Below, one piece after another: positions 3,529 through 26,568 of a DNA stretch of 49,391 nt. The stretch is from Ruminococcus sp. (lineage in GTDB: Bacteria; Bacillota_I; Bacilli_A; RF39; UBA660). The stretch covers positions 1 to 49,391 of the forward strand of contig JAMPHW010000001.1 in the NCBI GenBank assembly GCA_023663235.1, written 5' to 3'. The number at the start of each line of letters is the position of its first letter. Within the stretch, counting starts at the first letter, position 1. The notes beneath the pieces are model-generated. The model was not told the origin of the DNA. It saw only the letters and a list, made by a program, of their open reading frames with translations, and ran no database searches. Position numbers and translations under genes: made by a program.

Positions 3529-4200
3529 TCATTTTTTAGCTATATCTCTTGCATTAATCAAAGAAAGTTCTGTTCTAAATTTATTAGCTAATTCTAAAAT
3601 TTTATCAATATAACTTAAAGATCTGACGTCTAAAGCTTTAATTTTAGAACCTCCTAAACCTAACATCTCATCAACATCAACAGGCTCTCCTAAAAAAGAT
3701 GATAAATCTAAAAACTTTTTTTTAAAAGAATTTAAGAGAAATATATTGTTATATATTTTTTGAGCATTATCAGCATATATTCTATGTCTAATTGAATCAC
3801 TCATATCAAGAATCTGTGTTAAATTATTCAAAGCAGTATAAAGCAAAAGAATATTTTGATTAGAAAGAGGTGCTCCAATATTAATAGTTATTCTTCTTAA
3901 AGCTAATAAACTAGCTTTTAAAGAATCCTCACCAATTTCTATAAAAGCATCTCTTAATCTAAAATATGTTCCATCATAATAAACTTTTAATAATTCATTA
4001 TTATTACATATTTTTAAAACTTCCATTTCAGCATTAAACTTCTCCTGCTCAGCACTACTTCTTGATAAACTACTATCCCATAATGCCTCTATTTCTTCAA
4101 GTAAAGGTAAAATTTTATCTATGACTTCCTTTTTTCTAGAATTTAAACCATCGGTATCACAAGCCCAATCTTCAATTTTCCTTTTGAAGCTATTATACAT
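3529..4200 (-). CDS. hypothetical helical protein
   Basis: 223-aa ORF; its ATG overlaps the upstream stop (TAATG). Confidence 0.7.
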   Translation of the reverse strand: MYNSFKRKIEDWACDTDGLNSRKKEVIDKILPLLEEIEALWDSSLSRSSAEQEKFNAEMEVLKICNNNELLKVYYDGTYFRLRDAFIEIGEDSLKASLLALRRITINIGAPLSNQNILLLYTALNNLTQILDMSDSIRHRIYADNAQKIYNNIFLLNSFKKKFLDLSSFLGEPVDVDEMLGLGGSKIKALDVRSLSYIDKILELANKFRTELSLINARDIAKK

Positions 4201-6398: not shown

Positions 6399-6417
6399 AA
6401 AATTACCTCCTAAATTA

Positions 6418-6725
6418 CTAACTTATGCCACATGTATTAGCACTATAAACACCCAGTAATCGTAAAACAAATTCAATTAATATCGGTAAAAAGAATATAA
6501 TTACTGCTATTATTAATCTTTTTACAGTGCTATTTATCGCTTTTTTCATTGCATCAGGACTGCTAGAAGCAGTTGCTTTTCCAAACTCTAAAACCGTAAA
6601 AACAAATAATACCACTAATGCAATATATTTTATCAAATTAAAGGTAAATTGTAAATAATAAGCTGGGTCAGGATTTTCTTTATGTTCAGGACTACCAAGA
6701 AGACTAGAGCATTCACCATTTACCG
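6418..6725. repeat. imperfect direct repeat, copy 1 (pilin 3' end)
   Basis: Colinear, gap-free with 7714-8021 (offset 1296 bp), roughly 80% identical by eye. Confidence 0.85.
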
Positions 6726-7677
6726 TAAAATTTAAATTAGTATTAGTAGTTACTCCTCCTGGATTACTGCTTCCTTCTTGACCTACACCTTCCTGCAAAT
6801 TAGAACTATTGTTATATTCATTTGCTTCATCTTCACTAGTTGTTAATTTATAACTTCCTTCTGTATAACTTTCTTCAATAAGAAAAATTGAATTAGGACT
6901 AGGACAAGCAAAATTATTATTATTAACTTGAGCAGCATTTTTTTGTTCATATATGTTACTAACTTCATTCGCTGGTAAAACAATAGTATAAGTATGACCT
7001 TTATTATTTTCTAGCCTTCCAACAGCTCCTGTATTAGTTACTTCTATATTTTGAGCTTTTGCTTCCCCATCTTTATTAAGAAAAACTTTAAAATACTTCT
7101 TACCATTATCATACATTGAAAAGTTAATTGTAAACCCATCAACATCAGGAATAGATTTATCTGTTGTAATATGATAGTCACATGAAGTAACAACCTTTGG
7201 TATATTAGGAGTCTCTTCGTTTCCTTCATAATCAAATAATTCTGTTTTTCCCTCTGACACATTAGTACTATAAGCTACACCATTTAAAGAGGTGTCTTCT
7301 TGAGGTGAAATATTAAAATTTTCGTAATTAAACGCTATATAGGGACATACCTTTTTTTCATAATATTTTTTCATAACCTCAGCACTAAAACTATCCCCAA
7401 CTGTTAAAATAGATGTAAATTGCTTGTTATCTTTAACGTTAAAAGTGCTTACATTACTATGCATTTTTACATTACTATCAACAAATTTTGTATAATCACT
7501 ACCATTTACAATCTCTTTATTTATTGTTTCATCATCATAATAAGTAATTCTATATCTAATATATGTACTTAAATCTATTATTTTAGCATCATATGTGCAT
7601 ACCATTAATTTTTCTTTAGCACTAACACTAATATTAAATGAAAGGATTGTTAATATTAATAATATAGACTTCTTCAC
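6418..7677 (-). CDS. secreted Cys-rich protein with C-terminal VirB2/TrbC-like pilin domain
   Basis: Signal peptide (ISVSA); C-terminal two-TM hairpin LEFGKA...KKAINSTVKRLIIAVIIFFLP; GTG start with AGGAGG. Confidence 0.7.
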   Translation of the reverse strand: MKKSILLILTILSFNISVSAKEKLMVCTYDAKIIDLSTYIRYRITYYDDETINKEIVNGSDYTKFVDSNVKMHSNVSTFNVKDNKQFTSILTVGDSFSAEVMKKYYEKKVCPYIAFNYENFNISPQEDTSLNGVAYSTNVSEGKTELFDYEGNEETPNIPKVVTSCDYHITTDKSIPDVDGFTINFSMYDNGKKYFKVFLNKDGEAKAQNIEVTNTGAVGRLENNKGHTYTIVLPANEVSNIYEQKNAAQVNNNNFACPSPNSIFLIEESYTEGSYKLTTSEDEANEYNNSSNLQEGVGQEGSSNPGGVTTNTNLNFTVNGECSSLLGSPEHKENPDPAYYLQFTFNLIKYIALVVLFVFTVLEFGKATASSSPDAMKKAINSTVKRLIIAVIIFFLPILIEFVLRLLGVYSANTCGIS

Positions 7678-7713
7678 AAAATCACCTCCTTATTTAAATA
7701 CTTTATAATTATT

Positions 7714-8021
7714 CTAACTTATTCCACAAGTTCCTGCATTATAAACCCCAAGTAATTGTAAAACAAATTCAATTAATATTGGTAAAAAGAAAATTATAAC
7801 TGCAATTATTAATCTTTTTACAATACTATTTATCGCTTTTTTAATTGCATCTTGATTACTAGAAACTGTCGCTTTACCAAATTCTACAACCGTAAAAATA
7901 AATAATAAGACTAAAGCTACATATTTCATTACGTTAAAAATAAACTGTAAATAATAAGCAGGGTCAGGATTTTCTTTATACTCTGTACTACCAAGAAGAC
8001 TAGAACACTCTCCATTTACCG
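7714..8021. repeat. imperfect direct repeat, copy 2 (pilin 3' end)
   Basis: Matches 6418-6725. Confidence 0.85.
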
Positions 8022-8787
8022 AAAAGTCAAGACCAAGATTCACTTTAAGTTCTTTATATTTATTTTCTAGATATTCTTCAGTAATCCCATTTTCTGCAGC
8101 CGTATTAGTAGTTACTTCAACATCTGCGGTTGCATCAGCACATTTATCCGCATCATAATCTGAACTTTTTTCATCACAATATTTTTCTTGGTCACTTCGT
8201 GCTCTATTATACGAATCTGTATAATCTCTATCATTAGAACCAGCATAAGGATTAACAGCAATCGTTTTTCCTTTTAAAGTAAACAAATCTGTACTATTAT
8301 ATGTACACTCAGCTTCATCTTCATTTGTTTCACATAAAGTAATTTCATCCATTTTAAAACTTTCATTCCAATTTATTAAAACTCCTTTAGAACATAAAGT
8401 ACTTTCGTCAAAATTTGCTTCTTCATTATATCCTCGTCTTATCAAGCGATTTTTAATACTATAAAATTGAACCCCATCATATTTAAAAATACTATTAAAA
8501 TTTAAAATATCTGTAACCCACATCGTATCACTATCACTTGGGCATTTACTAATAAACGAATTTCCCATTGCACAATAATTCGTACCACCTTTAGTATAAA
8601 TTATTCGATAGTACACTTCTGCATCTCCTAAAGCTGCACCAACGTTATAATAAGTAATAGAAATTTTATTATCTCCTTTTTCATAATTACAAGTTAATTC
8701 ACCTACAGACCAATCAGTAGCATAAACATTACCTATCAAAAGAAAATAACTACAAAAAACATATAATAAAACAATTATTTTCTTCAT
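7714..8787 (-). CDS. secreted Cys-rich protein with C-terminal VirB2/TrbC-like pilin domain
   Basis: Signal peptide (NVYA); C-terminal ~100 aa highly similar to 6418-7677. Confidence 0.7.
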   Translation of the reverse strand: MKKIIVLLYVFCSYFLLIGNVYATDWSVGELTCNYEKGDNKISITYYNVGAALGDAEVYYRIIYTKGGTNYCAMGNSFISKCPSDSDTMWVTDILNFNSIFKYDGVQFYSIKNRLIRRGYNEEANFDESTLCSKGVLINWNESFKMDEITLCETNEDEAECTYNSTDLFTLKGKTIAVNPYAGSNDRDYTDSYNRARSDQEKYCDEKSSDYDADKCADATADVEVTTNTAAENGITEEYLENKYKELKVNLGLDFSVNGECSSLLGSTEYKENPDPAYYLQFIFNVMKYVALVLLFIFTVVEFGKATVSSNQDAIKKAINSIVKRLIIAVIIFFLPILIEFVLQLLGVYNAGTCGIS

Positions 8788-9681
8788 TTAATGGCCTCCT
8801 AAACTAGTGCATCCACTTTGGTTAGGCTTAAACATACATTTTGTACAATTAGAAAATTGATTATTATAAACATCATTAGCATTACTACCTATTATATTTA
8901 TTACAAAATTTAATAAAGTTGGTATAAAGAAAATAATAATACCTGCAATAGCTCTTATTACTAAAGTTTTAGCTGATTTTTTTATTTCATCATCTTTTGA
9001 AGATAAAATAGCTTTGCCAAAATCAATACATCCAAATACAATTAAAATAATAGGGATTAATATTTTAGCTATAAAAAATACCCATCCAATTGTTGTAAAA
9101 ACTCCTAAAACTCTATCAGAGCAAGGATGCTCAGTATCAAATTTACCATCACTACTAGAAGTACTTCCATAAACATATTTATCTTTAACTGTTTTCATTC
9201 TAAGTCTAGCATCTTGACACTTAGCATCATCTTGCAATTCTGGATTATTATTACAATATTTCTCTTCATCTTCTTTAGCCGCTATATATTCTGGATCGTT
9301 TTCATAACTATTATTATTTATATCTCCATTATCTATTTTAGAAGAACTAGCATCATTAGAAAGGGTTCTATAATCAGTTTTGCTAACACTACTAACATCC
9401 GTAATTTTACCTTCTGAACCACTTATTTGAATGTAAAGAGAGCTTGGACATTTATAAGTATTATCAGAAGTTTTAAACGCACTATAAGTTAAACTCATTC
9501 TACTAAAATCTGCAGGAATATTTCCAACTGATTGATTAGTACAACTAACACTATTATTACTAGCAGTACAAGTAATACGCCAATCACCATATTTATAAGC
9601 ACAAACAGCATCTGCTTTAACATCACTTAAAAGTATAAAACAAGCCATAATCATAAATACAAAATACTTTAAGTTTTTCAT
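8788..9681 (-). CDS. secreted Cys-rich protein with C-terminal VirB2/TrbC-like pilin domain
   Basis: Signal peptide (DVKA); KILIPIILIVFGCIDFGKAILS...KKSAKTLVIRAIAGIIIFFIP; GGAGG before the ATG at 9681. Confidence 0.7.
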   Translation of the reverse strand: MKNLKYFVFMIMACFILLSDVKADAVCAYKYGDWRITCTASNNSVSCTNQSVGNIPADFSRMSLTYSAFKTSDNTYKCPSSLYIQISGSEGKITDVSSVSKTDYRTLSNDASSSKIDNGDINNNSYENDPEYIAAKEDEEKYCNNNPELQDDAKCQDARLRMKTVKDKYVYGSTSSSDGKFDTEHPCSDRVLGVFTTIGWVFFIAKILIPIILIVFGCIDFGKAILSSKDDEIKKSAKTLVIRAIAGIIIFFIPTLLNFVINIIGSNANDVYNNQFSNCTKCMFKPNQSGCTSLGGH

Positions 9682-9829
9682 AAACTCCTCCAAAATATAT
9701 AAAAAAATAATATATAAAATTAACCATAATCATTATAACAGACTTTATAGTAAAAAACTAGTAAAATCGTATTTTTATAGCTTTTTTTGCCTTCTAAGTA
9801 TATAATATAATAAGTTTAGGAGGAATTTT

Positions 9830-13821: not shown

Positions 13822-13837
13822 AAACAGATACCTTTTT
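13808..13837. terminator. bidirectional terminator between convergent genes
   Basis: AAAAGATATCT...AGATACCTTTTT. Confidence 0.5.
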
Positions 13838-14675
13838 AAGTCATATTAAATATATCCAAAACTTCATAACTATTTATTACTTCATACTCTAGTTTATTAT
13901 TATTTATAGTATATACTCTTTCTTCTAATATTCCATATCCATTTTCAGTATAATTTAATTCAGTAATATTTAAAGCCAAATAATATATTTTATTGTCTTC
14001 TACTTTAAAGACTACATTGCAACCTCCGTAAGCATCACTATGCTTATTACAATAATTTTCATTAATATACCATACATTTTTATTTGTATCTAATTTAGTA
14101 ACTACATTAGTATAATAATTAGAAGTGGTAAAAGCTGAATTACTGTTCTCATAAGAATCCTCTATAGCGTCTTTGCTTATTAGTTCTAAATTGTCATTAT
14201 AAACATATACTGTATCATAATTAGTTATTATTAATAAATAATTTTTATTATCTTTTCCCTTAATAATTTTATAGTTTTCTTCATTAAAACTATCTTTTAT
14301 TAAAGTAACTAAATCACCTGTAAAATCACTTTTACATCTATCTAAATAAAGAAAAATATCATTATATTTACCATCAATATTAAACTTACAAAAATCATTA
14401 AAACTATCAGCCGTATAAACTATTTCCATATTCTTAGTTTTACCATTTAATGTTATTTCTAAACTTTCAATAGTATTAACTCCATCCTGTTTTACATCTA
14501 TTAATTTTACACTGTCACTAATAATATTATCATCATCATTTATTACTTCTTGTTTACCTTCTTTATTATCATTATTATTTTTGTTACTCATAACAATATA
14601 AGTTCCGCCAACAGATATTACCGCAACTAATATAATTATAACAACTATATAAATATACTTTTCTACAACGTTCAT
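13836..14675 (-). CDS. hypothetical membrane-anchored surface protein
   Basis: N-terminal TM ending GGTYIVMSNKNN, then an N/D-rich linker. Confidence 0.75.
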   Translation of the reverse strand: MNVVEKYIYIVVIIILVAVISVGGTYIVMSNKNNNDNKEGKQEVINDDDNIISDSVKLIDVKQDGVNTIESLEITLNGKTKNMEIVYTADSFNDFCKFNIDGKYNDIFLYLDRCKSDFTGDLVTLIKDSFNEENYKIIKGKDNKNYLLIITNYDTVYVYNDNLELISKDAIEDSYENSNSAFTTSNYYTNVVTKLDTNKNVWYINENYCNKHSDAYGGCNVVFKVEDNKIYYLALNITELNYTENGYGILEERVYTINNNKLEYEVINSYEVLDIFNMT

Positions 14676-14689
14676 TCTTCTATCTCCTA

Positions 14690-15367
14690 TTAATTATTTT
14701 GATTATATTTTTTATTATAAAACTGATTTAAATAACTTTCAATTTCTCTATTTAAATTATTATCTTTTTCTAAATCATTTAAGTTATTAGACAAATAAAA
14801 TACATTAATAGTTTCTATAAATCTATTTATTATAAAACTATCAGGAATTATATCATATAAAGCTTTTTTAATAACATTAATATCACTTGTAAAATGAAAT
14901 ATTTCTAAAGATTCAAAACCTATAATTTTAGCTAAATCATACATATAATTAACAACTAAACTATATGAATTATCATATAATTCATTAGCCTTCCCAAAAT
15001 ATTTATTATTAAATATAGCATTTATAGCTTCAGAAAAAGCACCATTACTAACTAAATCAGGTTCTTGTAAATGAAATAATTCATGGGTAACGATACAAGT
15101 CGGAATATCTTGTATCTTTTTACCTCCATAAAATATAATATAATTCTCTAAAAAATAATATTCGCCACTTTTTATATTATTTTCTTCATATACAATATAA
15201 ATACTTTCTAATATTTTTAAATATCTAGTTAAATTTATCTTATCATAGTTATCAACAATAGACTTTTCCATCATTTTGAAATACTCTTTTTCTTCATTAT
15301 TTAACTTTGTATTTTTAGATAAAGAAATTTCTAATAACCTATAAATATTTTCTTTTTTAATAGACAT
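14690..15367 (-). CDS. putative zincin metallopeptidase domain protein
   Basis: THELFH (HExxH) with downstream FSEAIN (candidate third-ligand Glu). Confidence 0.6.
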   Translation of the reverse strand: MSIKKENIYRLLEISLSKNTKLNNEEKEYFKMMEKSIVDNYDKINLTRYLKILESIYIVYEENNIKSGEYYFLENYIIFYGGKKIQDIPTCIVTHELFHLQEPDLVSNGAFSEAINAIFNNKYFGKANELYDNSYSLVVNYMYDLAKIIGFESLEIFHFTSDINVIKKALYDIIPDSFIINRFIETINVFYLSNNLNDLEKDNNLNREIESYLNQFYNKKYNQNN

Positions 15368-15370
15368 TTA

Positions 15371-17137
15371 TTATTTTCTACCCATACTATTATCTTCTGG
15401 TGGAAGTAAATTACCATCTTTATCAAATATTCCACTTGTATTTGGTGCAAATAACGGTTGTCCGTCTTCTCCTATTATCCATGTTCCTCCATATGATGGT
15501 ATATTTGTATCTGGTACTGAAAGTATTTTTAGCATCTCATTATTTCCTGCTATTTCGAACATTATATGGTTCCAACCAAATTTTTTGTCTACTTCTTTTA
15601 TTCCTTCTACACCCTCAACATTAATAGTATTATTTTCACTATTATAGTTACAGTTTACATCTTTTGTTTTAGCTCCATATGTAAATTTAATTGTATTTAA
15701 TTTCGTTAAATATCCGTCTAAATCTACTTCTTTATGACATTTTATTATAAAATCTTCATGCCCTACAAACCAAACTCTTTCTTCATCACTTAAATTTTTA
15801 TTAGTTGATAGAGCTTCTACTATTAAATTATGAATATCTTTTGCATCTAATACTACTACTCTATTATTTTCATTTATTCTTTCATCAAATAAATGAGTTG
15901 GGGGGATTAAATGACCATATTGGTCAAATATTCCGTCTGTATTTGATACATCACTAACTACTCCAGTTGTTACGCCGTCTGGTGCGACTGTTGTTAATCC
16001 ATCTGCAATAGGAAGTTTATCTATTAATTTTTGACTTTGTAATAAACTTATTATTATTTGATCTGAACTAAATCTTAATCTTATTTCATTTACATTTTTT
16101 ATTCCCACAAAAGTTATAGTATTATTTTCAGCATCATATTCACATTTTGTATCTTTACCATCCTCATATGTTACTTTAACTGTTTTTATTTTTTCTATAC
16201 ATTCATCTATTTCTATATCCTCTAAATTATTTCCAATATATAAATGGGTACTAATAAATATTACTTTTTCCTCATTACTTAAATTTTCATTACTTTCTAA
16301 AGCCTCTATTATTAAATCTCGTATATCTAAAGCTGTTAAATTCACAACTCTATCAGAAGTAATTCTGCTATCAAATAAATGAGTTGGGGGGATTAAATGG
16401 CCATATTGGTCAAATATTCCGTCTGTATTTGGTACATCACTAACTACTCCAGTTGTTACACCGTCTGGTGCAATTGTTGTTAAATTTTCTGTACTATTAG
16501 GTATGAATGCTGGCTGACCGTCTTCTCCAACTATCCATGTTCCAGCACCTTCGGGAATATTCGTTGTAGGACTTTCATGACTATCAATTACTCCAGTTGT
16601 TATGCCGTCTGGAATTATAACTTCTAAATCCTCATTTTTAATATCATTTAAGACAAGTTCTTGTGCAAAAGCATCTTGTATATCATAAATAGATATAACA
16701 TCTTTATCTATATCTTTAGCAGATGCTTTTAATGTTAAACATAAACCTACAGATAATAAAACAGTTGTAACTCTAGAACCTATTTTTACAAATCTTTTAT
16801 AAAATTCACTATTTTTATTTACTGATGCAAATGCTGCATATTCATTTTGATTATTAAATGTCTTATTAAATTCTACTAAAAATTCCTTATTAAATGGTTT
16901 AAAAGTATATATATTAGTTTCATCATCTTTATATATTTGATAATTTTTACCTCTATATTTCATTTCTGTTACTAAGGTTTCATTTTTAGGTATAAGTCCA
17001 TTAATAACAGAATTAAATACCTTTCTATCTTCTAAAGTTAAATCTAAGCCACCATTAACTTTAAATTTTATTTTTCCTTCTTCTTTTACTATCAAGTATT
17101 CTTTATTATCATAATTAAATTGCATTAAATTTTCCAT
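15371..17137 (-). CDS. hypothetical internal-repeat protein
   Basis: Two ~162-aa units plus DG(V/I)TTGV and GTWI.GEDGQP repeats; AGGAG before MENLMQ. Confidence 0.75.
   Translation of the reverse strand: MENLMQFNYDNKEYLIVKEEGKIKFKVNGGLDLTLEDRKVFNSVINGLIPKNETLVTEMKYRGKNYQIYKDDETNIYTFKPFNKEFLVEFNKTFNNQNEYAAFASVNKNSEFYKRFVKIGSRVTTVLLSVGLCLTLKASAKDIDKDVISIYDIQDAFAQELVLNDIKNEDLEVIIPDGITTGVIDSHESPTTNIPEGAGTWIVGEDGQPAFIPNSTENLTTIAPDGVTTGVVSDVPNTDGIFDQYGHLIPPTHLFDSRITSDRVVNLTALDIRDLIIEALESNENLSNEEKVIFISTHLYIGNNLEDIEIDECIEKIKTVKVTYEDGKDTKCEYDAENNTITFVGIKNVNEIRLRFSSDQIIISLLQSQKLIDKLPIADGLTTVAPDGVTTGVVSDVSNTDGIFDQYGHLIPPTHLFDERINENNRVVVLDAKDIHNLIVEALSTNKNLSDEERVWFVGHEDFIIKCHKEVDLDGYLTKLNTIKFTYGAKTKDVNCNYNSENNTINVEGVEGIKEVDKKFGWNHIMFEIAGNNEMLKILSVPDTNIPSYGGTWIIGEDGQPLFAPNTSGIFDKDGNLLPPEDNSMGRK
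15884..15997. repeat. 114-bp direct repeat, copy 1
   Basis: 5 mismatches versus 16370-16483 (offset 486 bp). Confidence 0.95.
16370..16483. repeat. 114-bp direct repeat, copy 2
   Basis: Matches 15884-15997. Confidence 0.95.
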
Positions 17138-17228
17138 TTCATTTCTCCTATCTTTATACAATTTTTTATTAACTATTAACACTAATAACCCTAAATATTC
17201 TAGTTCATTAAATATTTTTTAACTATTT

Positions 17229-18070
17229 CTACACAACCTCCGTTGAATACCAATAATATCCTGTATCATTTTTCTTAAACACATGTTTGTATTTAGTAAA
17301 TTCTGTTTTATGATTTTTAAAATAATTTTTAGCACACACATCAACATCTACACTATTACTACATATTGTTGTTATATTTGTTTCTTCTTTTGTATAACAG
17401 TCTCTTATAGCCAAATCCATTGGAACTCCACCACTATCATAGTATGCCGCATATTCATATATAATTAAATCTTCATTTATAAAAGTATAGCCATCATTAA
17501 AGCTTAATTTCTCATAATAGTTTGGAGAACAATATGTGACTTGTATTTTATCATTTCAATACCGCTACATATTCCATTAATCGTGTAATCGAAATAGCCC
17601 AAACTTCCACTAGTAATTATGATATCTTTGTTATATATTTCTTTTATTTTTTTATTTATATCAGAAATATTAACATAAACAGGATCTAAAGTATTTAGTA
17701 CATTCAATAACTTTTCTTCACCATTTACAAAGTTATATATAGCCATAGTGATTAAAGTTCTATCATTTAAATCATTCGAAGTTGCTTTATTAATATTATA
17801 AGCTCCCACTATATCTGAGTATTGAATGCCTGTTGGAACATAGCCCAAATATTTATTTAACTCTTCTTCACTTAAAGTAATTTTTTCTTTACTTTCTTCC
17901 TTATTGTTAATATCATTTTTATTATCATTAACTTTATTATCTACATTATTAACCTTATCATTTATATTAGTATTACTATTATTTTTATTACTCATAACAA
18001 TATAAGTTCCACCTATTGCTATAACTACTAATAATACTACTATTATTACATAAGGTATATATTTTTTCAT
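17229..18070 (-). pseudogene. frameshifted membrane-anchored surface protein
   Basis: Downstream frame is open from 17555 to 17229 (NDKIQVTYCSP...GYYWYSTEVV) and overlaps the 188-aa ORF; one extra A near 17556 (GAA AAT GAT) would fuse them. Confidence 0.7.
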
Positions 18071-18200
18071 ATAAACTTCTCCTCTTTTTCTAGCACTATT
18101 TTATCATATATTTTTATATTAAGCAAATTTACAATTATACAATATTATTGACTATACGTTTTATTTACAACAAATATTCACAAAGATAATAATTAAAAAC

Positions 18201-18231
18201 AAAAAGATAGAATTAATTAAATTCTACCTTT
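18201..18231 (-). terminator. terminator after the second murE
   Basis: AAAAGATAGAAT...ATTCTACCTTTT hairpin. Confidence 0.45.
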
Positions 18232-18254
18232 TATTTTACCTAAAATAATGTAAA

Positions 18255-19784
18255 TTAAACATTAACCTCTTCTATATCCTTATCATATTCTCCTATCGCC
18301 TGCATTACATAATCTGTATCTGTAAGAATTGGTACATATTCCTTACCAATTTTTTGATAAGTTTCATTTCCTTTACCAGTTATTAAAATAACACTATCTA
18401 AATTTTCTTTAATTGCAGTTTTTATAGCCAATTCCCTATCATTAATTATTCTGTACTCGCCTTTATTCTTTTTTACATAAATAGCTATTTCTTCACTAAT
18501 CTTTTGAACATCCTCCATTGCTGGATCTTCTGCTGTTAAATAAGTAATATCACTATATTTTCCCGATAATAATCCTAAATCTTTTCTTCTGTTTTGTGCA
18601 TGCCCACCAGGACAACCAAATACAGTTATAATCTTTTTGTTAGGATATTCTTTAATTATAGAAGTATATAATCTTTCAAAACTCAAAGTATTGTGAGCAT
18701 AATCAACTATAGCAATTATCCTTTTGTCTTTAGTTGCATGATATTCCATTCTACCACTTGCTTTTGCTATTTTTAATCCATCATAAATGTTTTTAAATGG
18801 TACATCTAAAGATATAGCTATAGCAATCGCTGCCAAAGCATTTTCTACATTAAATAATCCTGGCATACTAAGTTCTATTTTCTCATCAAAATTCTTAGTT
18901 TTTACTCTAAAATTAATTGTTGTATCACTTGTCTTTTTAATATCATAAGCATATAAATCTGCACTTTTATCTTTTGTACTAAAAGTTAAAGTATCTACAC
19001 CTTTAGCATTTTCTAATATTTCTTCAATATGTTCTGTATCTAAATTAATAACCGCCTTCTTTACTTGTTTAAATATTTTTAACTTTGAATCAAAGTAATC
19101 TCTAAAATCAGGATGTTCAATATCACTTATATGATCAACATCAATATTTAGGAAGGCTCCAACATCATAAGTAATACCATATACTCTATCTAATTTTAAA
19201 CCTTGCGAACTAACTTCCATCACTAAGTTTTTTAAATTATGATTAACAGCATTTCTAATATGTCTTTGTAAATCAATTGATTCTGGATTAGTCATCGTTG
19301 CTTCTTTAGTCTCTAACCCATCATATGTGTCAACAGAAGACATAATCGCTGTATCTGTTCCATCAATTTCTTTATAGTAGTTGTCTAATATACTTTTAAC
19401 ATAATAAGCGGTTGTCGTCTTACCCTTTGTCCCTGTTATTCCAATCATTTTTATCCTATTAGCTGGATAATCATTATAAAGAATTGAAACTAAAGCTAAA
19501 GCCGCTCTTACATCTTTAACAATAATTCTTGGAAATTCACTATCTTGTTTATTTTCATCTTCACTTATATAGCATATAGCCCCACTATCTATCGCTTCTT
19601 CTAAGTATTCTTTTTTATATTTTAAACCTTTGCATATATATAAAGTCTTATCTTTTACTTCTTTAGAATTATGCGATAAATATAAAATATCTTCATTTAA
19701 CAATTCTTCACTTATATTATAATCTATTACTAAATTATCTTTATTTAATATATCTAAATAATCTTTAAGTTTATATAATTTCAT
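18255..19784 (-). CDS. murE: MurE ligase, non-DAP-type motif (EDPA)
   Basis: GITGTKGKTT, MEVSSQG, SGRME, VDYAHN, FGCPGG, TAEDPAME, ITGKGNE. Confidence 0.9.
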   Translation of the reverse strand: MKLYKLKDYLDILNKDNLVIDYNISEELLNEDILYLSHNSKEVKDKTLYICKGLKYKKEYLEEAIDSGAICYISEDENKQDSEFPRIIVKDVRAALALVSILYNDYPANRIKMIGITGTKGKTTTAYYVKSILDNYYKEIDGTDTAIMSSVDTYDGLETKEATMTNPESIDLQRHIRNAVNHNLKNLVMEVSSQGLKLDRVYGITYDVGAFLNIDVDHISDIEHPDFRDYFDSKLKIFKQVKKAVINLDTEHIEEILENAKGVDTLTFSTKDKSADLYAYDIKKTSDTTINFRVKTKNFDEKIELSMPGLFNVENALAAIAIAISLDVPFKNIYDGLKIAKASGRMEYHATKDKRIIAIVDYAHNTLSFERLYTSIIKEYPNKKIITVFGCPGGHAQNRRKDLGLLSGKYSDITYLTAEDPAMEDVQKISEEIAIYVKKNKGEYRIINDRELAIKTAIKENLDSVILITGKGNETYQKIGKEYVPILTDTDYVMQAIGEYDKDIEEVNV

Positions 19785-19814
19785 TTTAAACCTCCATGTA
19801 ATTTTCTAAATTCT

Positions 19815-19843
19815 ATTATACTAGACTAATAAAGACAAGTCAA
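19815..19843 (-). promoter_or_regulatory. sigA promoter of the EDPA-type murE
   Basis: TTGACT-N17-TATAAT on the minus strand, followed by a GGAGG RBS. Confidence 0.75.
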
Positions 19844-19858
19844 AACCAAATTAAGGAT

Positions 19859-21307
19859 TTACTTTACATATTTATCAATAATTTCTCTTTCATTAAAATA
19901 ATACTTTGTTCCCTTTATATCCTGATATTCTTCATGCCCTTTTCCAATTAGAATAATTAAATCACCATCTTTACTATTATCTATAGCATATTTTATTGCT
20001 TCCTCTCGCTCATCTATTTCTATATATTGAGCATTTACTTTATCTAATCCTACTTTAATATCCTCATTTATTGCGCTTATTTCTTCGAATCTTGGATTAT
20101 CCATCGTAATTATACACAAATCACTATTAGCTCCAATAATTTCTCCTGCTTTATAGCGTCTTTCCTTAGGTCTATTTCCTCCACAACCAAAAATACTTAC
20201 TAATCTCTTAGGTTGATAATTTTTTAGTGTTTTAACTAAATTTTCTATCGCATCTCCTGTATGAGCATAATCAATTAATATTTTATAATCTGCTGCAAAA
20301 ACAAGTTCCATTCTTCCCTTAACTTTAACTTCAAGTAAAGCTTTTTTTATGGCTTCTTCATCTATCCCAAGTAATTTAACAACGAGTATTCCTGCTAAAG
20401 CATTATATATATTAAACAATCCAGGCAAACTTAAAGTAAAGTACTCATTTACTAAACCATTAGTTTTAAATTTTGACCCTAACAAGTTTTCATCATTTAT
20501 AAATTCATAATTACTTACCTTTAAATCACTCTCACTATCTAAACTATATCTATAAATAGGACTATTAACATTTTCTAATACTTCTTTTAAATATTTGCTA
20601 TCATTATTTATTACTACCTTTTTACTATTTGTAAATAACTTATTCTTACATTTAATATATTCATCTTGACTTTCATGTTCTCTAGGTCCTATATGATCAC
20701 TTGTAATATTAGTTAAAACACCAATATCAAAATTTATACCATCTAACCTATCCATTTTAAAAGCTTGACTAGAAGTCTCCATCACTACATGTGTAACATT
20801 ATTATCAAGCATTTCTCTAAATGTTTTGAAAACTTCATAAGACTCTGGTGTTGTATTATCTGTATGTCTATCTATATCTCCATATTTTATACCAGTACTA
20901 CCAATTAAACCAACATTATTTCCTGCTTCTTCTAGTATTTTTTTAATAATATATGTTGTTGTCGTCTTTCCACTTGTTCCCGTAACTCCAATAACAGTTA
21001 AATGTTCTAGAGGATTACCAAAATACTTTTTAGAAAGATTGGCTAAAGTTTTTCTTGTATTATTAACTTTAATTACTGTAACATCACCATAAATACTAAC
21101 CATTTTGGAAACTACTATAACTTTAGCTCCTTTATCTATAGCTTCTGGTATAAATTCATGACCATCTACGACTTCCCCTTTTAAAGCTATAAATAAATCG
21201 CCTTTTTCTACACTCCTACTATCATATTTACTATCATTTATTTCTATATCTATATTTCCTTTTATTAAACTATAATCTATACCTTCTAAAATATCATTTA
21301 ATTTCAC
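19859..21307 (-). CDS. murE: MurE ligase, meso-DAP-type motif (DNPR)
   Basis: GVTGTSGKTTT, TTPES, METSSQ, KGRME, IDYAHT, FGCGGNR, MDNPRFE, GKGHEEYQ. Confidence 0.92.
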   Translation of the reverse strand: MKLNDILEGIDYSLIKGNIDIEINDSKYDSRSVEKGDLFIALKGEVVDGHEFIPEAIDKGAKVIVVSKMVSIYGDVTVIKVNNTRKTLANLSKKYFGNPLEHLTVIGVTGTSGKTTTTYIIKKILEEAGNNVGLIGSTGIKYGDIDRHTDNTTPESYEVFKTFREMLDNNVTHVVMETSSQAFKMDRLDGINFDIGVLTNITSDHIGPREHESQDEYIKCKNKLFTNSKKVVINNDSKYLKEVLENVNSPIYRYSLDSESDLKVSNYEFINDENLLGSKFKTNGLVNEYFTLSLPGLFNIYNALAGILVVKLLGIDEEAIKKALLEVKVKGRMELVFAADYKILIDYAHTGDAIENLVKTLKNYQPKRLVSIFGCGGNRPKERRYKAGEIIGANSDLCIITMDNPRFEEISAINEDIKVGLDKVNAQYIEIDEREEAIKYAIDNSKDGDLIILIGKGHEEYQDIKGTKYYFNEREIIDKYVK

Positions 21308-22156
21308 TTAATTTTCCCCCTCATTTAAAGTAAAATCTCCATTATATACAAAATGACTTGGACCCATCATATATATTTCTTTATCACAATTAAGTTCAAT
21401 ATCAATAAATCCACCAATTTGTTCCACTTTACATTTACTCTTAACTTTATTTAAATAATTAGCAACTACTACCGCTGATGAAGCACCTGTTGCACATCCA
21501 ATAGTTTCTCCAGTTCCTCTTTCCCATTCTCTTATTTTTATATAATCACCACTAACAATTTGAGCAAAAGTTACATTAGTTCTTTTAGGAAATATTTCTA
21601 AATTATTTTCAATTGCTGGCCCATATTTATCTATATCTAAATTGTCTAAATTATCAACAAATAAAACGGTATGTGGATTACCTAAAGAAATAGTACTAAG
21701 TCTAAAATTTTTATCTAATATTTTAACTTCTTCCATTATAAATTTTTCTTTACCTGTATTAACAGGTATTAACTTTGCTTCCATTATCGGTTTTCCAATA
21801 TTTGCTTTTACATTAACAACTCTATCATTATCTATAATTAATTCCAAATATTTTATTCCGCCTAATGTTTCAATTGTTATTTTTTTCTTATTAGTAAATC
21901 CTAAATCATAAACATATTTTCCAACACTTCTAAGAGCATTACCACACATTTCTGCTTCTGTACCATCAGGATTAAATATCCTCATTCTAAAATCTGCTTT
22001 ATCACTATTTGAAATTAATACTAAACCATCACTACCAAGCCCATAGTGTCTACTAGTAAGTTTTTTAGCTAAAATATTAGGATTTTCTATACCTTCTTTA
22101 AAAGTATTTATATAAAGGTAATCATTTCCATAAGCTTGCATTTTAACTATTTTCAT
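21308..22156 (-). CDS. dapF: diaminopimelate epimerase family
   Basis: GNDY, EAEMCGNA, GNPH, WERGTGETIGCATG (both catalytic Cys present). Confidence 0.9.
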   Translation of the reverse strand: MKIVKMQAYGNDYLYINTFKEGIENPNILAKKLTSRHYGLGSDGLVLISNSDKADFRMRIFNPDGTEAEMCGNALRSVGKYVYDLGFTNKKKITIETLGGIKYLELIIDNDRVVNVKANIGKPIMEAKLIPVNTGKEKFIMEEVKILDKNFRLSTISLGNPHTVLFVDNLDNLDIDKYGPAIENNLEIFPKRTNVTFAQIVSGDYIKIREWERGTGETIGCATGASSAVVVANYLNKVKSKCKVEQIGGFIDIELNCDKEIYMMGPSHFVYNGDFTLNEGEN

Positions 22157-23338
22157 TTAATCACCTAAAGCTTCCTTTAAATCGGCAATTATATCATCAG
22201 CATCTTCTATTCCTACTGATAATCTAAGTAAAGTTTCGGTAATTCCAAGTTTCTCTCTTATTTCTTCTGATATTTCTGTATGTGTTCTACTAACTGGATG
22301 GGTAATTAAACTTTCTACTCCACCTAAACTTTCTGCAAATAGTATTAAATTTAGTCTTTCCAAAAAAGTATTGACTGTTTCCATACTGTCTAATGTAAAT
22401 GATATCATTCCTCCAAAACCTGATGTTTGTTTTAAAGTTATATCATAATTAGGATGATCTTCAAATCCAACATAATAAACTTCTTTTACTTTCTTATGAT
22501 TTCTTAAGAATTTAGCTACTTTCATGGCATTTTCACTATGTTTATTCATCCTTATAGCAAGCGTCTTTAAACCTCTTAAAGCAAGCCATGAATCCATAGG
22601 TGATAAACAAGCTCCATATATTGCAGTTTGTAAACTTAAATATTCGGCTTGTTCTTTTGTTTTAACTACTACTACACCTGCTAAAACATCATTATGCCCG
22701 CTTATATACTTAGTAGCACTATAAATTACAATATCTGCTCCTAAATCTAATGGCTTTTGATAATAACTCGTTAAGAAAGTATTATCAACTACCAAAGTAA
22801 TACCACTTTTATGAGCAAGTTCTGCTATAGCTTTTATATCTGCAACTTTCATCATAGGATTAGTAGGTGTTTCAAGTAGTATCATTCTTGTTTTCTTGGT
22901 TATACTTTTTCGAACTGCATCCAAATCTGTAAAGTCTACTTGATTATATTTAATTCCATTAATTTTTAAAACTTCTTCACAAGCTCTAATAGTTCCACCA
23001 TAAACATCATCAGATATTAAAATATGTTCTTTAGGTTTTAACATGGTAAGAACTAGACTAACTGCTGCCATTCCACTAGATAAAGCAAAAGCTTGATATC
23101 CATGATCGAGTATTGCCATTGTTCTTTCAAATTCTTCACGAGTTGGGTTAATAATACGACTATAATTAAAATTTGTATTTTCTTTTATGCCAATATGTCT
23201 ATATGTTGCAGTTTGAAATATTGGAAAACTTATAGCACCTGATACAGGATCATGCCCTAAAGCTCCTCTAACTACTTTTGTTTCATCATGAAGATTTTCT
23301 TTTTTATCATATACTGTATAATTAGTAAAATTTTTCAT
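22157..23338 (-). CDS. Cys/Met-metabolism PLP enzyme (cystathionine gamma-synthase/lyase family)
   Basis: YSRIINPTR, SSGMAA, YGGT, ETPTNP, DNTF, SATKYISGHND, ESLGGVESL, RLSVGIE. Confidence 0.9.
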   Translation of the reverse strand: MKNFTNYTVYDKKENLHDETKVVRGALGHDPVSGAISFPIFQTATYRHIGIKENTNFNYSRIINPTREEFERTMAILDHGYQAFALSSGMAAVSLVLTMLKPKEHILISDDVYGGTIRACEEVLKINGIKYNQVDFTDLDAVRKSITKKTRMILLETPTNPMMKVADIKAIAELAHKSGITLVVDNTFLTSYYQKPLDLGADIVIYSATKYISGHNDVLAGVVVVKTKEQAEYLSLQTAIYGACLSPMDSWLALRGLKTLAIRMNKHSENAMKVAKFLRNHKKVKEVYYVGFEDHPNYDITLKQTSGFGGMISFTLDSMETVNTFLERLNLILFAESLGGVESLITHPVSRTHTEISEEIREKLGITETLLRLSVGIEDADDIIADLKEALGD

Positions 23339-23357
23339 AAACCACTTCCCTTATAAA

Positions 23358-23387
23358 ACTATATGAAAAAAAGAAAGTTTTCTTTAC
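23358..23387 (-). promoter_or_regulatory. possible sporulation-sigma (sigE-like) promoter
   Basis: GTAAA-N17-CATATAGT; no TTGACA-like -35 at sigA spacing. Confidence 0.25.
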
Positions 23388-23396
23388 TTTCTTTTT
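23366..23396 (-). terminator. weak terminator after the folA-SAS pair
   Basis: AAAAAGAAAGT-loop-ACTTTCTTTTT, T-run on the minus strand. Confidence 0.4.
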
Positions 23397-23865
23397 ACAC
23401 TTTAGTTCTTTCTAATACAGCACCATATTTACGCTCATCATGTTCTTCATGTGTACTATTAGTCCAATCACGCATTTCTTTAGTCATAATCTGTATTTCT
23501 GTACCAATTTCTTCATTTTCAAAAAAATAATTATAAGCTTTATACCCAGTCTCTTTAGGTTTTTCAAAAAAATCTACAATTCGGGTTGGTCTAAAATAAT
23601 AATCAATTAAACTTGCTATTAGTTGAACATCTTCTTCTGTATCTATTGCTATTCTAAATCCAATTATATCTGGAACATCTAGTAATTCAAAATATCCATA
23701 TCTCATTGCATATAATCTCTGCTTTAACTTTATTTTATCTAAACTTTTAATTCTAAATTCTAAAATATAATCTTTATCATATTTTGTATCTAAAAAACTT
23801 TTTAATATTTCTTGCATTTCATACGCTTCTAAATACGCTAGTTCCTCTAAATATTCTTCTTTCAT
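23395..23865 (-). CDS. small alarmone synthetase-like RelA/SpoT domain protein
   Basis: RIKS..KI..K, DIIGFRI, DFFEKPKETGYKAYN, EIQIMT..M..W...H. Confidence 0.75.
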   Translation of the reverse strand: MKEEYLEELAYLEAYEMQEILKSFLDTKYDKDYILEFRIKSLDKIKLKQRLYAMRYGYFELLDVPDIIGFRIAIDTEEDVQLIASLIDYYFRPTRIVDFFEKPKETGYKAYNYFFENEEIGTEIQIMTKEMRDWTNSTHEEHDERKYGAVLERTKV

Positions 23866-23877
23866 TTAGCTCCTCAT

Positions 23878-24363
23878 CTACTTTTTTCGGCGATATCTAG
23901 CAAATTGATAATTAATACCATTTTCCTCATTAATTCCAATTACATCTTTATCAAAATCATTTTTATTAAATTCAGGAAAATATGCATCAGCTTCTCTAAA
24001 TTCTGCGTTTATCTCTGTCAATAGCATTTCATCAACATCATTTATAAATAATTTATAAATAGAAGCTCCCCCAATTATAAATACATCTTCTTCTAAAGTT
24101 TGTAAGTATTGTATTAATTCTTCATAACTAGAAAAACGCATAACCCCTTCTATTTGTAAATCTCGATGTGTTAAAACAATATGTTCTCTACCTGGAAGTA
24201 ATTTGGGAAAAGACACAAATGTATTATAACCCATTACTATTTTATGGTTCATGGTATTATCTTTAAAATATTTTAAATCATTTTTTAAACGCCATATTAA
24301 ATTATTTTTATATCCAAGTTCGTTATTATTACCAACAGCTGCAATCATTATTAATTTTGACAT
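23878..24363 (-). CDS. folA: dihydrofolate reductase
   Basis: LIWRLKNDLKYFK, VMGYNTF, LPGREHIVLT, IIGGASIY, DAYFP. Confidence 0.95.
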   Translation of the reverse strand: MSKLIMIAAVGNNNELGYKNNLIWRLKNDLKYFKDNTMNHKIVMGYNTFVSFPKLLPGREHIVLTHRDLQIEGVMRFSSYEELIQYLQTLEEDVFIIGGASIYKLFINDVDEMLLTEINAEFREADAYFPEFNKNDFDKDVIGINEENGINYQFARYRRKK

Positions 24364-24429
24364 ACATATCACCTTTTCTTAAAACGCTTTATTATTCTAC
24401 CGTAAATAAACTATTTTGTAAAGAAAAAG

Positions 24430-26568
24430 TTATATTAGATTGACATTTAAATACTTATCAATAACTTTATTTATATACCTAAACCCATACTTTTGATACT
24501 TAATCTCTTTTAATACTTCATCATAATTAATATTGATATTATTTAGCTTTTCTTTAAGATAACTTAAAACCTGTTCTTTACTTATTGCCTTAAATTCTAT
24601 TATATCATCAAATCTCCCTAAAAATTCTTCTGTAAAATAATCATTTAAATTAGTTTCATTACCCTCTAAAAAACCTACATTTTTGTTTTTATACGCATTG
24701 GAAGTCATAAATATTAAAGTATGTGAAAAATCTATTTTTTCGCCATGTGCATCGTGAATAAACCCTTCATCCATTATTTGTAAAAATAAATTTAATACAC
24801 TAGGATGTGCCTTTTCTATTTCATCAACCAAAATTATTGAATAAGGATTATATTTAACTTTATTAAATATATAATCATCCTCATACCCAACATATCCTTG
24901 AGTTACCCCAATTAATTTATTAACTGATGTTTCTAAATTAAATTCACTCATATCAAGTCTAATTAAATTATTTTGTAAAGACTCACTTAAGAGTTTAATA
25001 CTAGAGGTTTTACCTACACCACTAGGACCTACAAGTAAAACTTTAATACTTTTATTTTTATTAAAATATAATTTTAAGTTATTAATTAATTGCTGTACCG
25101 CTTTATCTTCACCATAAATATTCTTATTTAAAGTTTTTGTTATTTTATTTATTACTTCTTTCTTATCCAAAAACATAGGTATATTACTTTTAAATTCAAT
25201 TACTTTTAAAATATCTTCTTTTGTTATCATATCATTTCTAATTTTTTTAAAACTATTTATTTCTTCTTCCTTTTTATTTATTTTTAAACATATATTTAAA
25301 GCTTCATCATAATTACCCTTTAAAACATAATCTTCTTTAGTACTAATTAAATCCTTTAGTTCATTTTCTAATAATTTAATTTTATCCTTAGTTGAGCTTT
25401 TTCTTTTAACATGTGCACAAATACTATCAAGTAAATCTATAGTTTTATCTGGATTTTTCTTCGTAAATAAATATTTATTACTATAATAAACTATATTTTC
25501 AATATTATCTTCAGTAATTGTTATTCCATGATGTTTTTCATAGCTTGTCTTTAATCCTTTAATTATTTCTTTTGTTTCTTCTAAACTTGGCTCTTTTACA
25601 TTTACTATTTCAAAACGACGTTCTAAAGCTTTATCTTTAGCTATAAATTTTTCATATTCATGCGTTGTGGTTGCTCCAATTACTCTAATATCCCCACGAG
25701 CTAAATAAGGTTTTAAAATATCGCTAGCATTTATCGCACCTTCTGCTCCTCCAGCATTAACCATAGTATGAACTTCATCTATAAAAAGAATGATATTTTT
25801 GTTTTTCATAACTTCTTTAATTATTTTAGTTAATCTTTCTTCAAATTCCCCACGATATTTTGTCCCACTTACTAAATCTCCCATTGGAAGCTCTACAATC
25901 AATTTATTTTCTAAAGCTATAGGAACATTTTTATCTTTAATTCTTCTAGCTAACTCTTCTATAATTGCTGTTTTACCAACTCCAGCTGGACCTATAAGTA
26001 ATGGGTTACTTTTCTTTTTTCTAAGTAAAACTTCTATTAAATTATTAATCTCTTTATCTCTTCCTATTACTTTATCAAATGTATCTACTTTATCATTTAA
26101 AACTGTTCCTACATTAAATATTTCACTATTTTTATTTGTAATACTTTCTGGTTTTATTTTTAGTTCATCATATAAATCATCTAAATTAATTCCCAGTCCA
26201 ATCATTATTCTAATAGCAATTCCTTCACCCTCATCAAGCATCGCTACTAATAAATGATCTTCTGTTACTACTCCTTTGTTATTTTCTTTCGCATCACTTA
26301 AAGCATTACTAAGGATTCTTTTAAGTAAAGGCGTATATAAATTAACTGGATTATTCTTTTTAGGTATACCTACAATACTAATAAGTTCTTTTCTAAAAGT
26401 TTGATAATCTAAATCATATTCTTTTAATTTTTCTTTTAATGGTGTATCACTTTTTAATATTGCTAAAAGTAAATGTTCACTTCCAACATAAGGATGTGAT
26501 AATTTATTTCTTTCTTCTTCAGCTTTCTTTAATATTTCACTACCTATAAAACCAAAATTATTAAACAT
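24430..26568 (-). CDS. clpC: ClpC-like AAA+ chaperone
   Basis: Clp N-repeats (SEHLLLA, EDHLLVA), GPAGVGKT, KYRGEFEER, GPSGVGKT, GYVGY, VGF ClpP-docking loop. Confidence 0.8.
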   Translation of the reverse strand: MFNNFGFIGSEILKKAEEERNKLSHPYVGSEHLLLAILKSDTPLKEKLKEYDLDYQTFRKELISIVGIPKKNNPVNLYTPLLKRILSNALSDAKENNKGVVTEDHLLVAMLDEGEGIAIRIMIGLGINLDDLYDELKIKPESITNKNSEIFNVGTVLNDKVDTFDKVIGRDKEINNLIEVLLRKKKSNPLLIGPAGVGKTAIIEELARRIKDKNVPIALENKLIVELPMGDLVSGTKYRGEFEERLTKIIKEVMKNKNIILFIDEVHTMVNAGGAEGAINASDILKPYLARGDIRVIGATTTHEYEKFIAKDKALERRFEIVNVKEPSLEETKEIIKGLKTSYEKHHGITITEDNIENIVYYSNKYLFTKKNPDKTIDLLDSICAHVKRKSSTKDKIKLLENELKDLISTKEDYVLKGNYDEALNICLKINKKEEEINSFKKIRNDMITKEDILKVIEFKSNIPMFLDKKEVINKITKTLNKNIYGEDKAVQQLINNLKLYFNKNKSIKVLLVGPSGVGKTSSIKLLSESLQNNLIRLDMSEFNLETSVNKLIGVTQGYVGYEDDYIFNKVKYNPYSIILVDEIEKAHPSVLNLFLQIMDEGFIHDAHGEKIDFSHTLIFMTSNAYKNKNVGFLEGNETNLNDYFTEEFLGRFDDIIEFKAISKEQVLSYLKEKLNNININYDEVLKEIKYQKYGFRYINKVIDKYLNVNLI

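Follow-up and report, generated by a model that had tools for sequence, protein, structure and literature searches.

We analysed a stretch of 49,391 nucleotides (nt) from the assembly of a Ruminococcus sp., an uncultured gut spore former (GCA_023663235.1, contig JAMPHW010000001.1; hereafter the window) that contains two tandem genes for MurE, the ligase of position 3 of the peptidoglycan stem peptide, which differ in their specificity motifs, in their distribution across the genus and in their promoters. The window has a G+C content of 25-29% and makes up the opening 49 kb of a contig of 278 kb, within a genome of 1.50 Mb that is divided among 53 contigs and is 93.7% complete (G000; other G numbers denote compared genomes). 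The genes of the locus all lie on the minus strand, along which the order is dihydrofolate reductase, a small RelA/SpoT-domain protein, a hairpin, a pyridoxal-phosphate-dependent enzyme of cysteine/methionine metabolism (the PLP enzyme), a DapF-like epimerase, MurE-A, a 74-bp gap, MurE-B and a second hairpin (Table 1). The PLP/DapF and DapF/MurE-A junctions have zero gap (22157/22156 and 21308/21307, respectively), and MurE-A and MurE-B are the only MurE genes in the genome that score above the family cut-off.

Table 1. Features of the MurE locus, with positions counted from the first letter of the window (aa, amino acids; DAP, diaminopimelate)
Feature	Position	Strand	Details
Dihydrofolate reductase	24372..23878	(-)	
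Small RelA/SpoT-domain protein, 156 aa	23865..23395	(-)	PF04607, 51 bits, sole domain
Terminator-like hairpin and U-run	23368..23396	(-)	closes the dihydrofolate reductase/RelA-SpoT unit; -10.2 kcal/mol, z -2.6
CATATAGT box, candidate -10 of a sigE-type sporulation promoter	23358..23365	(-)	27 nt before the PLP ATG
Cys/Met-metabolism PLP enzyme, 393 aa	22157..23338	(-)	PF01053, 481 bits
DapF-like cofactor-independent epimerase, 282 aa	21308..22156	(-)	TIGR00652, 245 bits, cut-off 115
MurE-A, 482 aa, predicted DAP-type ligase	19859..21307	(-)	TIGR01085, NF001126
sigA-type promoter TTGACT-17-TATAAT	19815..19843	(-)	in the 74-bp gap
MurE-B, 509 aa, accessory ligase	18255..19784	(-)	TIGR01085 only
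Terminator-like hairpin and U-run 3' of MurE-B	18196..18237	(-)	-12.9 kcal/mol, z -3.8, 0/200 shuffles as good
Arginase-like gene, 295 aa	12934..13821	(+)	TIGR01229, 218 bits, cut-off 227.6; agmatinase 95 bits

The two MurE ligases

Translation confirmed the motifs described in the initial annotation, namely DNPR and GCGGNR in the upstream MurE and EDPA and GCPGGHA in the downstream one. In MurE-A, DNPR occupies residues 403-406 (20090-20101) and GCGGNR residues 374-379 (20171-20188). Both DNPR and the arginine of GGxR have roles in the recognition of meso-diaminopimelate (meso-DAP), as established for E. coli MurE. With 492 bits, MurE-A passes the meso-DAP-ligase equivalog model NF001126 (cut-off 373), and it scores 437 bits on the broader model TIGR01085 (cut-off 257). 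Taken together, the NF001126 score and the two motifs identify a predicted pocket of meso-DAP type in MurE-A, which is not in itself proof of the actual substrate.

MurE-B, which is 34% identical to MurE-A, carries EDPA at residues 419-422 (18519-18530) and GCPGGHA at residues 390-396 (18597-18617). It passes the subfamily model TIGR01085 with 300 bits and falls under all equivalog cut-offs: its best score on a meso-DAP equivalog was 361 bits against a cut-off of 715, and the L-lysine-adding MurE model NF010628 (cut-off 536) was passed by neither protein (MurE-B, 338 bits; MurE-A, 355 bits). The middle and C-terminal Mur ligase domains (PF08245 and PF02875) were found in both proteins, with the P-loops GTSGKT and GTKGKT, while the N-terminal Mur ligase domain of Pfam went undetected in MurE-B. 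When compared with solved MurE proteins, MurE-B scored 109-169 bits, with residues 32-496 aligned across their full length, including the N-terminal domain. The P-loop and the DH/E/GKG motifs were invariant in 17 MurE-B homologues, in all of which (at 55-81% identity) GCPG[GDNS][HK]A takes the place of GGxR; the motif at the EDPA position ends in alanine or glycine in close relatives. No MurE from 70 other genera of the family was more than 37% identical to MurE-B, and a scan of named genomes matched only MurE genes of Cyclobacteriaceae, at 28-29% identity; 'Clostridium sp. CAG:567' is the one source name among the MurE-B homologues. The Atlas clusters for MurE-B are annotated as generic Mur ligase only, and a nearby cluster that was auto-named L-lysine ligase was taken as no more than a lead.

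Paired MurE genes are a theme of the family as a whole. Two tandem MurE genes, both above 420 bits on TIGR01085, are present in 11 of the 70 other genera (for example in G392, G138, G396 and G337), where an enzyme of DNPR type (GCGG[DN]RD) stands beside one with FGCTG[DS]RD and either DDPH or DDLH. Further MurE classes in the family carry DDPR and YEDPR, and in 12 of the 70 genera no MurE was seen.

A core operon and an accessory island

MurE genes were compared across 36 other genomes of the genus, some of the remaining genes across 41 genus genomes and the gene for a MetA-like acyltransferase across 40 relatives. A MurE-A-type gene was present in 35 of the 36 relatives, the exception being a genome that is 53% complete, whereas orthologues of MurE-B (53-64% identical) were found in 5 of the 36 (6 of 37 with G000 included). 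MurE-B is therefore accessory and the MurE-A operon core. The order PLP-DapF-MurE-A was syntenic in 13 of the 15 genus genomes first examined and, over all 36 loci, the PLP gene was recovered in 32 and the DapF gene in 31, several of the misses falling at contig ends. The view that this three-gene unit is an accessory of sporulation, put forward in the initial annotation, thus has to be given up: the unit is the standard MurE pathway of the genus, and the sole one in 30 of the 36 relatives, to which MurE-B is an add-on. DNPR is kept in the MurE-A of all genomes with MurE-B.

The PLP enzyme belongs to the cystathionine gamma-synthase/gamma-lyase family, with the lysine motif SATK at residues 207-210, and is the only strong member of the PF01053 family in G000. 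It reached no equivalog cut-off of NCBIfam, scoring 453 bits on the gamma-lyase model (cut-off 594), 434 and 432 bits on synthase models (cut-offs 642 and 513) and 325 bits on the O-acetylhomoserine/cysteine synthase model TIGR01326; its closest solved relative is 7d7o (386 bits). The DapF-like protein scores well above the cut-off of its epimerase family, has both catalytic cysteines, Cys71 (CGNA, residues 71-74) and Cys221 (CATG, residues 221-224), and aligns end to end with solved DapF. In solved DapF, motifs of the type GNDY, FNPDG, GNPH, TNVTF and WERG contact the distal end of the amino acid through Asn, Glu and Arg, and these five are kept in 28-31 of 31 DapF sequences from the genus. 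Gly-to-Ala changes in the motifs near the cysteines were considered as a mark of a new substrate and then dropped: CGNA is found in 27 of 31 sequences, yet 23 of 31 have the second motif in its canonical form.

This combination of genes sets the genus apart. In a sample of 300 genomes of the class, adjacency of PLP and DapF genes was found in this genus alone, and the next closest pair lay 22 kb apart. Elsewhere in the family, none of 33 genomes from other genera had DapF, PF01053 occurred in 1 of 70 genera and a homologue of the MetA-like acyltransferase in 0 of 70; within the genus, the MetA-like gene, which is unlinked to the operon, is present in 38 of 40 relatives.

Neither dapA nor lysA was found in G000, and the best match to dapB there reached 25 bits against a cut-off of 122. 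The genome also has no match to the PALP family (PF00291), and hence no lanthionine synthase of the Fusobacterium type, no cysteine synthase other than the candidate PLP enzyme, and neither MetE nor MetH; homoserine dehydrogenase was absent from all 41 genus genomes. Across the family, in which genomes measure 0.7-1.5 Mb, dapA is present in just 6 of the 70 other genera. Since dapA, dapB and lysA are all missing, DAP made in the cell is an unlikely residue for MurE-A, and in place of the DAP of the initial annotation a thioether surrogate or scavenged DAP is the more likely. Likewise, because MetE, MetH and homoserine dehydrogenase are missing, the PLP enzyme and MetA-like protein cannot work in methionine synthesis.

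Two further genes are associated with MurE-B. Four genomes carry, between MurE-A and MurE-B, a gene for an ATP-grasp-type protein of 404 aa, which matches no Pfam family and has only weak ATP-grasp-type (carbamoyl-phosphate-synthase-like) matches in NCBIfam; D-aspartate ligase is the Joint Genome Institute (JGI) label of 4 among 120 listed homologues. An arginase-like gene, which scores best on the arginase model (193-218 bits, cut-off 227.6) and lower on that for agmatinase (85-107 bits), adjoins MurE-B in the same four genomes (G006, G014, G015 and G024) and lies 4.4 kb from it in G000. Within the genus it is present in five of the six genomes with MurE-B, as against one of the 35 others (G004), or six of 41 in all.

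The single ATP-grasp copy of G000 lies on contig C6 (L028:7353-12441, minus strand), together with genes for a short alanine-tRNA ligase (583 aa), an alanine-racemase-like protein and a DUF1848 protein; this cluster may serve to add a branch, with some D-amino acid in place of D-aspartate.

Promoters of the two units

The initial annotation had assigned a promoter of its own to the downstream MurE and, to the upstream operon, only a CATATAGT box with no -35 of sigA type; both descriptions proved accurate. The 74-bp gap (19785-19858) contains TTGACT (19843-19838), a 17-nt spacer, TATAAT (19820-19815) and GGAGG (19795-19791). Promoter-like sites in the interval 17400-24700 are no more numerous than in shuffled sequence (43 versus 52.8 +/- 5.4), and the gap promoter is the sole one among them to match at 11/12 positions; genome-wide, matches of at least 11/12 number 342 per 3.0 Mb strand, so that about 0.008 would be expected in 74 nt. 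The promoter is conserved in five other species: in G006, G024 and G015, TTTTTGACTTATCTTTATTACTTTAGTATAAT recurs ahead of the ATP-grasp gene, the -35 is weaker in G014, and a similar site precedes MurE-B in G026. In G000, where the ATP-grasp gene is gone from the locus, the promoter abuts MurE-B directly.

Upstream of the PLP gene, the box of G000 stands directly 3' of the terminator-like hairpin. A sigA promoter is absent from this position in all six genomes with MurE-B, whereas 24 of the 25 readable genomes without MurE-B have TTGACA-N16-18-TATACT there, and the 25th a TATATT variant. Most of these MurE-B-less genomes also possess a CATA[CT]A.T box, often reading CATACACT, about 35 nt further upstream, right after the terminator. 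In the MurE-B genomes the box is kept, 25-29 nt before the PLP start codon (in G026 as CATAAAAT), and the -35 preceding it, poor in G000 (TAAAGAA), is better in G014 (TAATATT) and G015 (AACATAA). The MetA-like gene of G000 has the box as well, and the TGnTATAAT site found upstream of this gene in 10 of 15 MurE-B-less genomes was seen in 0 of 6 with MurE-B.

The box resembles the -10 element of B. subtilis sigE promoters, for which the consensus is like CATACA.T and is preceded by a -35 at a distance of some 14 nt. CATA[TC]A.T occurs 18-50 nt upstream of 30 of the 1483 called genes of G000, with a positional peak at 10-40 nt. When box genes were scanned with NCBIfam, 7 of 22 matched sporulation-named families at E<=1e-10, compared with 0 of 20 random box-less genes. 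SpoVD, SpoIID, GerQ and YabP exceeded their cut-offs; SpoVB-, SpoVIF- and CwlD-like proteins fell below theirs; and Pfam added SpoVS and a SpoIIIAH-like protein. In several of the box genes, a -35 element resembling ACATATT or TCATAAA precedes the box by 13-14 nt. Every one of the 41 genus genomes carries the sporulation gene spo0A, which leaves the genus without an evidently non-sporulating member for comparison, and G000 also has spoIVA.

In a tree of the operon proteins (PLP, DapF and MurE-A; quick search, midpoint root), 29 MurE-B-less genomes form one clade, supported at 98 in the Shimodaira-Hasegawa-like approximate likelihood ratio test (SH-aLRT), with the MurE-B genomes outside it. On this tree, the change in island and promoter may have been either gain or loss.

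Other sequence elements were noted in these upstream regions. CATA[TC]A.T has a second peak in G000, 90-100 nt upstream of starts, with 23 cases in one 10-nt bin, which may reflect a repeated element. In MurE-B-less relatives (for example L017:8200-8340 and L021:8760-8890), TGTAAAG with AGGCATTTAC precedes the sigA -35, and a small hairpin, AAGG..CCTT, lies between the -10 and the ribosome-binding site, perhaps as part of a regulatory leader. No Rfam family was matched in the window or in the loci of five relatives, so a riboswitch or T-box does not explain this leader. A palindrome around the box, TACACTTTAGTGTA, was considered as an operator and rejected, as it is not conserved across the genus.

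As for the surroundings of the locus, the RelA/SpoT synthetase-type gene lies directly 3' of dihydrofolate reductase and 5' of the PLP operon, a position taken in relatives by unrelated open reading frames (ORFs) of 187-233 aa. Between MurE-B and the arginase-like gene (13836-18070, minus strand) are four ORFs of 279, 225, 603 and 188 aa that are not at this position in relatives; the 188-aa product is a membrane protein with a weak, sub-threshold SpoIIIAH-like match, and no family was found for the other three. Five successive ORFs of 223 to 732 aa at 3529-9693 (minus strand) have no Pfam family. Finally, the window encodes a pair of double-AAA+ ATPases of ClpC/ClpB type, both 712 aa long and less than 22 kb apart (24430-26568 and 46347-48485, minus strand), the second without a Clp_N match.

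Proposed residues at stem-peptide position 3

We consider it likely that MurE-A and MurE-B add different residues, and the initial proposal of two ligases with different specificities is to that extent supported by inference from their sequences. Because MurE-B has neither of the DAP-type arginines, its substrate would be a diamino acid without a distal carboxylate; ornithine is favoured because an arginase-like gene is linked to it, and lysine is the alternative. For MurE-A, the PLP enzyme, perhaps fed by the MetA-like acyltransferase, may use cysteine to form an L,L-thioether diamino acid. This could be lanthionine or cystathionine, which the present data do not separate, although the presence of a MetA-like gene speaks for the latter. 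The DapF-like enzyme would then epimerise one end of this thioether diamino acid, and MurE-A would ligate the product in place of the meso-DAP that the cell cannot make. PMC12681378, citing Mengin-Lecreulx 1994, states that DAP-type MurE enzymes accept lanthionine and cystathionine and, according to PMC11602996, F. nucleatum lives on lanthionine without a DAP pathway. That the residue of MurE-A is a thioether, rather than true DAP, strikes us as not far short of an even call.

In the genomes with MurE-B, this enzyme would be read from the conserved sigA-type promoter in growing cells and add L-ornithine, supplied by the arginase-like enzyme, or imported L-lysine, after which the D-aspartate-ligase-like ATP-grasp enzyme may add a branch. 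The core operon would in these genomes have lost its sigA promoter and kept the sigE-type -10 box, so that the DAP-like residue would be made mainly in sporulation and go into the cortex, an arrangement that Lysinibacillus sphaericus also shows. The promoter comparison argues for the assignment of MurE-B to the vegetative wall and of PLP-dapF-murE to sporulation, as first suggested, within the MurE-B subclade; elsewhere in the genus it does not hold, and the DAP-type operon serves both phases. On balance we lean towards such a stage split in this genome. The full combination, in which two stage-split pathways put different residues at position 3 and that of MurE-A is a thioether, is our best explanation and is offered tentatively. 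More doubtful is its extension to the genus, according to which all species use a thioether wall and one subclade gained an ornithine-type island and deleted the vegetative promoter, with the thioether becoming specific to the cortex.

A number of observations weigh against this explanation. The arginine is retained (EDPR) in 6 of 16 aligned MurE-B homologues, which weakens the motif argument of the initial annotation, built on the established link between loss of the DNPR arginine and addition of lysine or ornithine. What ties the PLP enzyme to the wall is gene adjacency alone, and the operon is reduced to MurE-A alone in G028 and, in G004, to the PLP gene followed directly by MurE-A, without DapF or the MetA-like gene. 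(G004, at locus L019, nonetheless carries the arginase-like gene and a sigA promoter, and is an informative natural variant.) With no homoserine source, the cystathionine route is weakened, and PMC11602996 reports that the one related claim for an epimerase in Fusobacterium was revised to histidine racemase. Most of the dapA-less genera of the family carry a DNPR-type MurE without DapF (0 of 33 sampled), so that DAP scavenging is evidently workable in the lineage. As to the branch, the locus of G000 has no ATP-grasp gene, its one copy (43-45% identical) lying elsewhere, 3' of the alanine-racemase-like gene; the family also occurs in five MurE-B-less genomes; and G000 has a single Asp/Glu racemase, with no aspartate racemase found. 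As to the stage split, G000 has a poor -35 ahead of its box, there is no terminator between the murE genes (z +0.4), so that read-through and co-transcription are possible, and promoter loss and MurE-B presence map to one branch and so count as one event rather than as replicated evidence. Lastly, every function at the locus is itself inferred from sequence comparison.

The dapA-less relatives suggest another source for the residue of MurE-A. The enzyme may add meso-DAP scavenged in the gut, with DapF doing no more than interconverting scavenged LL- and meso-DAP, and with the PLP enzyme and MetA-like protein making cysteine or homocysteine by direct sulfhydrylation and sitting in the operon for unrelated reasons. 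The 64 of 70 other genera that lack dapA, most with a DNPR-type MurE, must have another way to their position-3 residue, so that DAP scavenging has to be widespread among them; they are in keeping with this reading, as are the score of MurE-A above the DAP-ligase cut-off, the 325 bits of the PLP enzyme on TIGR01326 and the absence of another cysteine synthase from the genome. We nevertheless regard it as rather unlikely, since scavengers in the family do without DapF, which would be left with no clear job here, the PLP, DapF and MurE-A genes abut and stay together across the genus, and homocysteine is a dead end without MetE or MetH.

The timing, too, might be explained otherwise. Both ligases may be made in growth, MurE-B being read from its own promoter and acting as a back-up on ornithine or lysine when the DAP-like precursor runs short, with mixed stems as the outcome; auxotrophy of the lineage for many precursors would agree with such a role, but MurE-A is intact, with DNPR, in all MurE-B genomes. 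The operon would in this case be read from the box as a weak sigA -10, as TATAGT within it matches 5/6 positions and the sigE-type -35 is weak in G000, or by read-through from upstream, in line with the lack of a terminator between the two murE genes. Yet a terminator-like hairpin lies directly upstream of the box, no sigA -35 precedes it, a strong sigA promoter is found in 0 of 6 MurE-B genomes as against 24 of 25 others, and the box is enriched before sporulation genes (7/22 versus 0/20); this account is in our estimation improbable. Least probable by far is that MurE-B is no position-3 ligase at all, and is instead a diverged Mur paralogue with another acceptor, such as a different site of the stem or a different polymer. 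Its scores below all MurE equivalog cut-offs and of 109-169 bits to solved MurE, together with the undetected N-terminal domain of Pfam, could be read in this way; however, it passes TIGR01085, can be aligned from residue 32 to 496 with solved MurE at full length, N-terminal domain included, has homologues in which the P-loop and DH/E/GKG motifs never vary, and adjoins MurE-A and a branch-ligase-like gene.

Returning to the explanation by two stage-split residues, the identity of position 3 matters because on it depend the cross-links of the wall, its detection by receptors of innate immunity and the targets of antibiotics. At this locus a small and conserved set of genes would provide a substitute for DAP in a lineage unable to make DAP, and the existence of sister species set apart by a single island and a single deleted promoter makes the link between ligase choice and sporulation directly testable. 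The system is a variation on two known themes, the dual ligases of L. sphaericus and the thioether wall of Fusobacterium, and if the extension to the genus is correct, it would be a natural, genetically traceable switch between walls of one and of two chemistries. Outside Fusobacterium and a few relatives we know of no natural thioether wall, and for stage-specific wall chemistry we know of the old enzymology of L. sphaericus and of no genetic account. No such operon and no natural cystathionine wall was found in a literature search from which subscription journals were largely absent.

In Lysinibacillus (Bacillus) sphaericus, an L-lysine-adding enzyme is used in growth and a meso-DAP-adding enzyme is induced in sporulation. 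Like the present organism, it is a spore former with two position-3 ligases, which there give a Lys-type wall with a D-Asp branch and a DAP-type cortex; matching features here are the sigA promoter of MurE-B, the D-aspartate-ligase-like neighbour in relatives and the sigE-type box of the MurE-A operon. The two systems differ in that a DAP pathway is absent here, with the DAP-type ligase encoded in one operon alongside DapF and a PLP enzyme of Cys/Met metabolism; in that the second ligase here may use ornithine; in that most species of the genus have the DAP-type ligase alone, with both promoters; and in that the pair described here is known from genes, in contrast to the enzymology of L. sphaericus. 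The putative branch ligase has a counterpart in the D-aspartate ligase of Enterococcus faecium (Aslfm), which belongs to the ATP-grasp type. Both are ATP-grasp proteins, that of the genus being of about 400 aa and encoded beside a non-DAP MurE; unlike Aslfm, the protein here has no curated family match, is accompanied by no aspartate racemase that we could find, and in G000 is encoded away from the locus.

The likeness to Fusobacterium nucleatum, which has a meso-lanthionine wall, lies in the lack of a DAP pathway, a PLP enzyme that makes, or here is proposed to make, a thioether analogue of DAP, and a DapF homologue, as PMC11602996 describes them for Fusobacterium. By the same account, its DapF homologue is a histidine racemase, and the host here is by contrast a spore former of Gram-positive lineage. 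Its synthase, moreover, is CysK-like (fold type II), whereas the present enzyme is a Cys/Met PLP enzyme of fold type I in a genome without the PALP family. In E. coli, dap mutants reportedly build their wall with cystathionine or lanthionine, as Mengin-Lecreulx et al. are said to have found in 1994. The families that handle the thioethers there are the three of the present operon, namely PLP enzymes of Cys/Met metabolism, DapF and MurE of DAP type. In E. coli this was a suppression in the laboratory, whereas here the three genes form an operon that is natural and conserved, and the lineage has neither dapA nor dapB.

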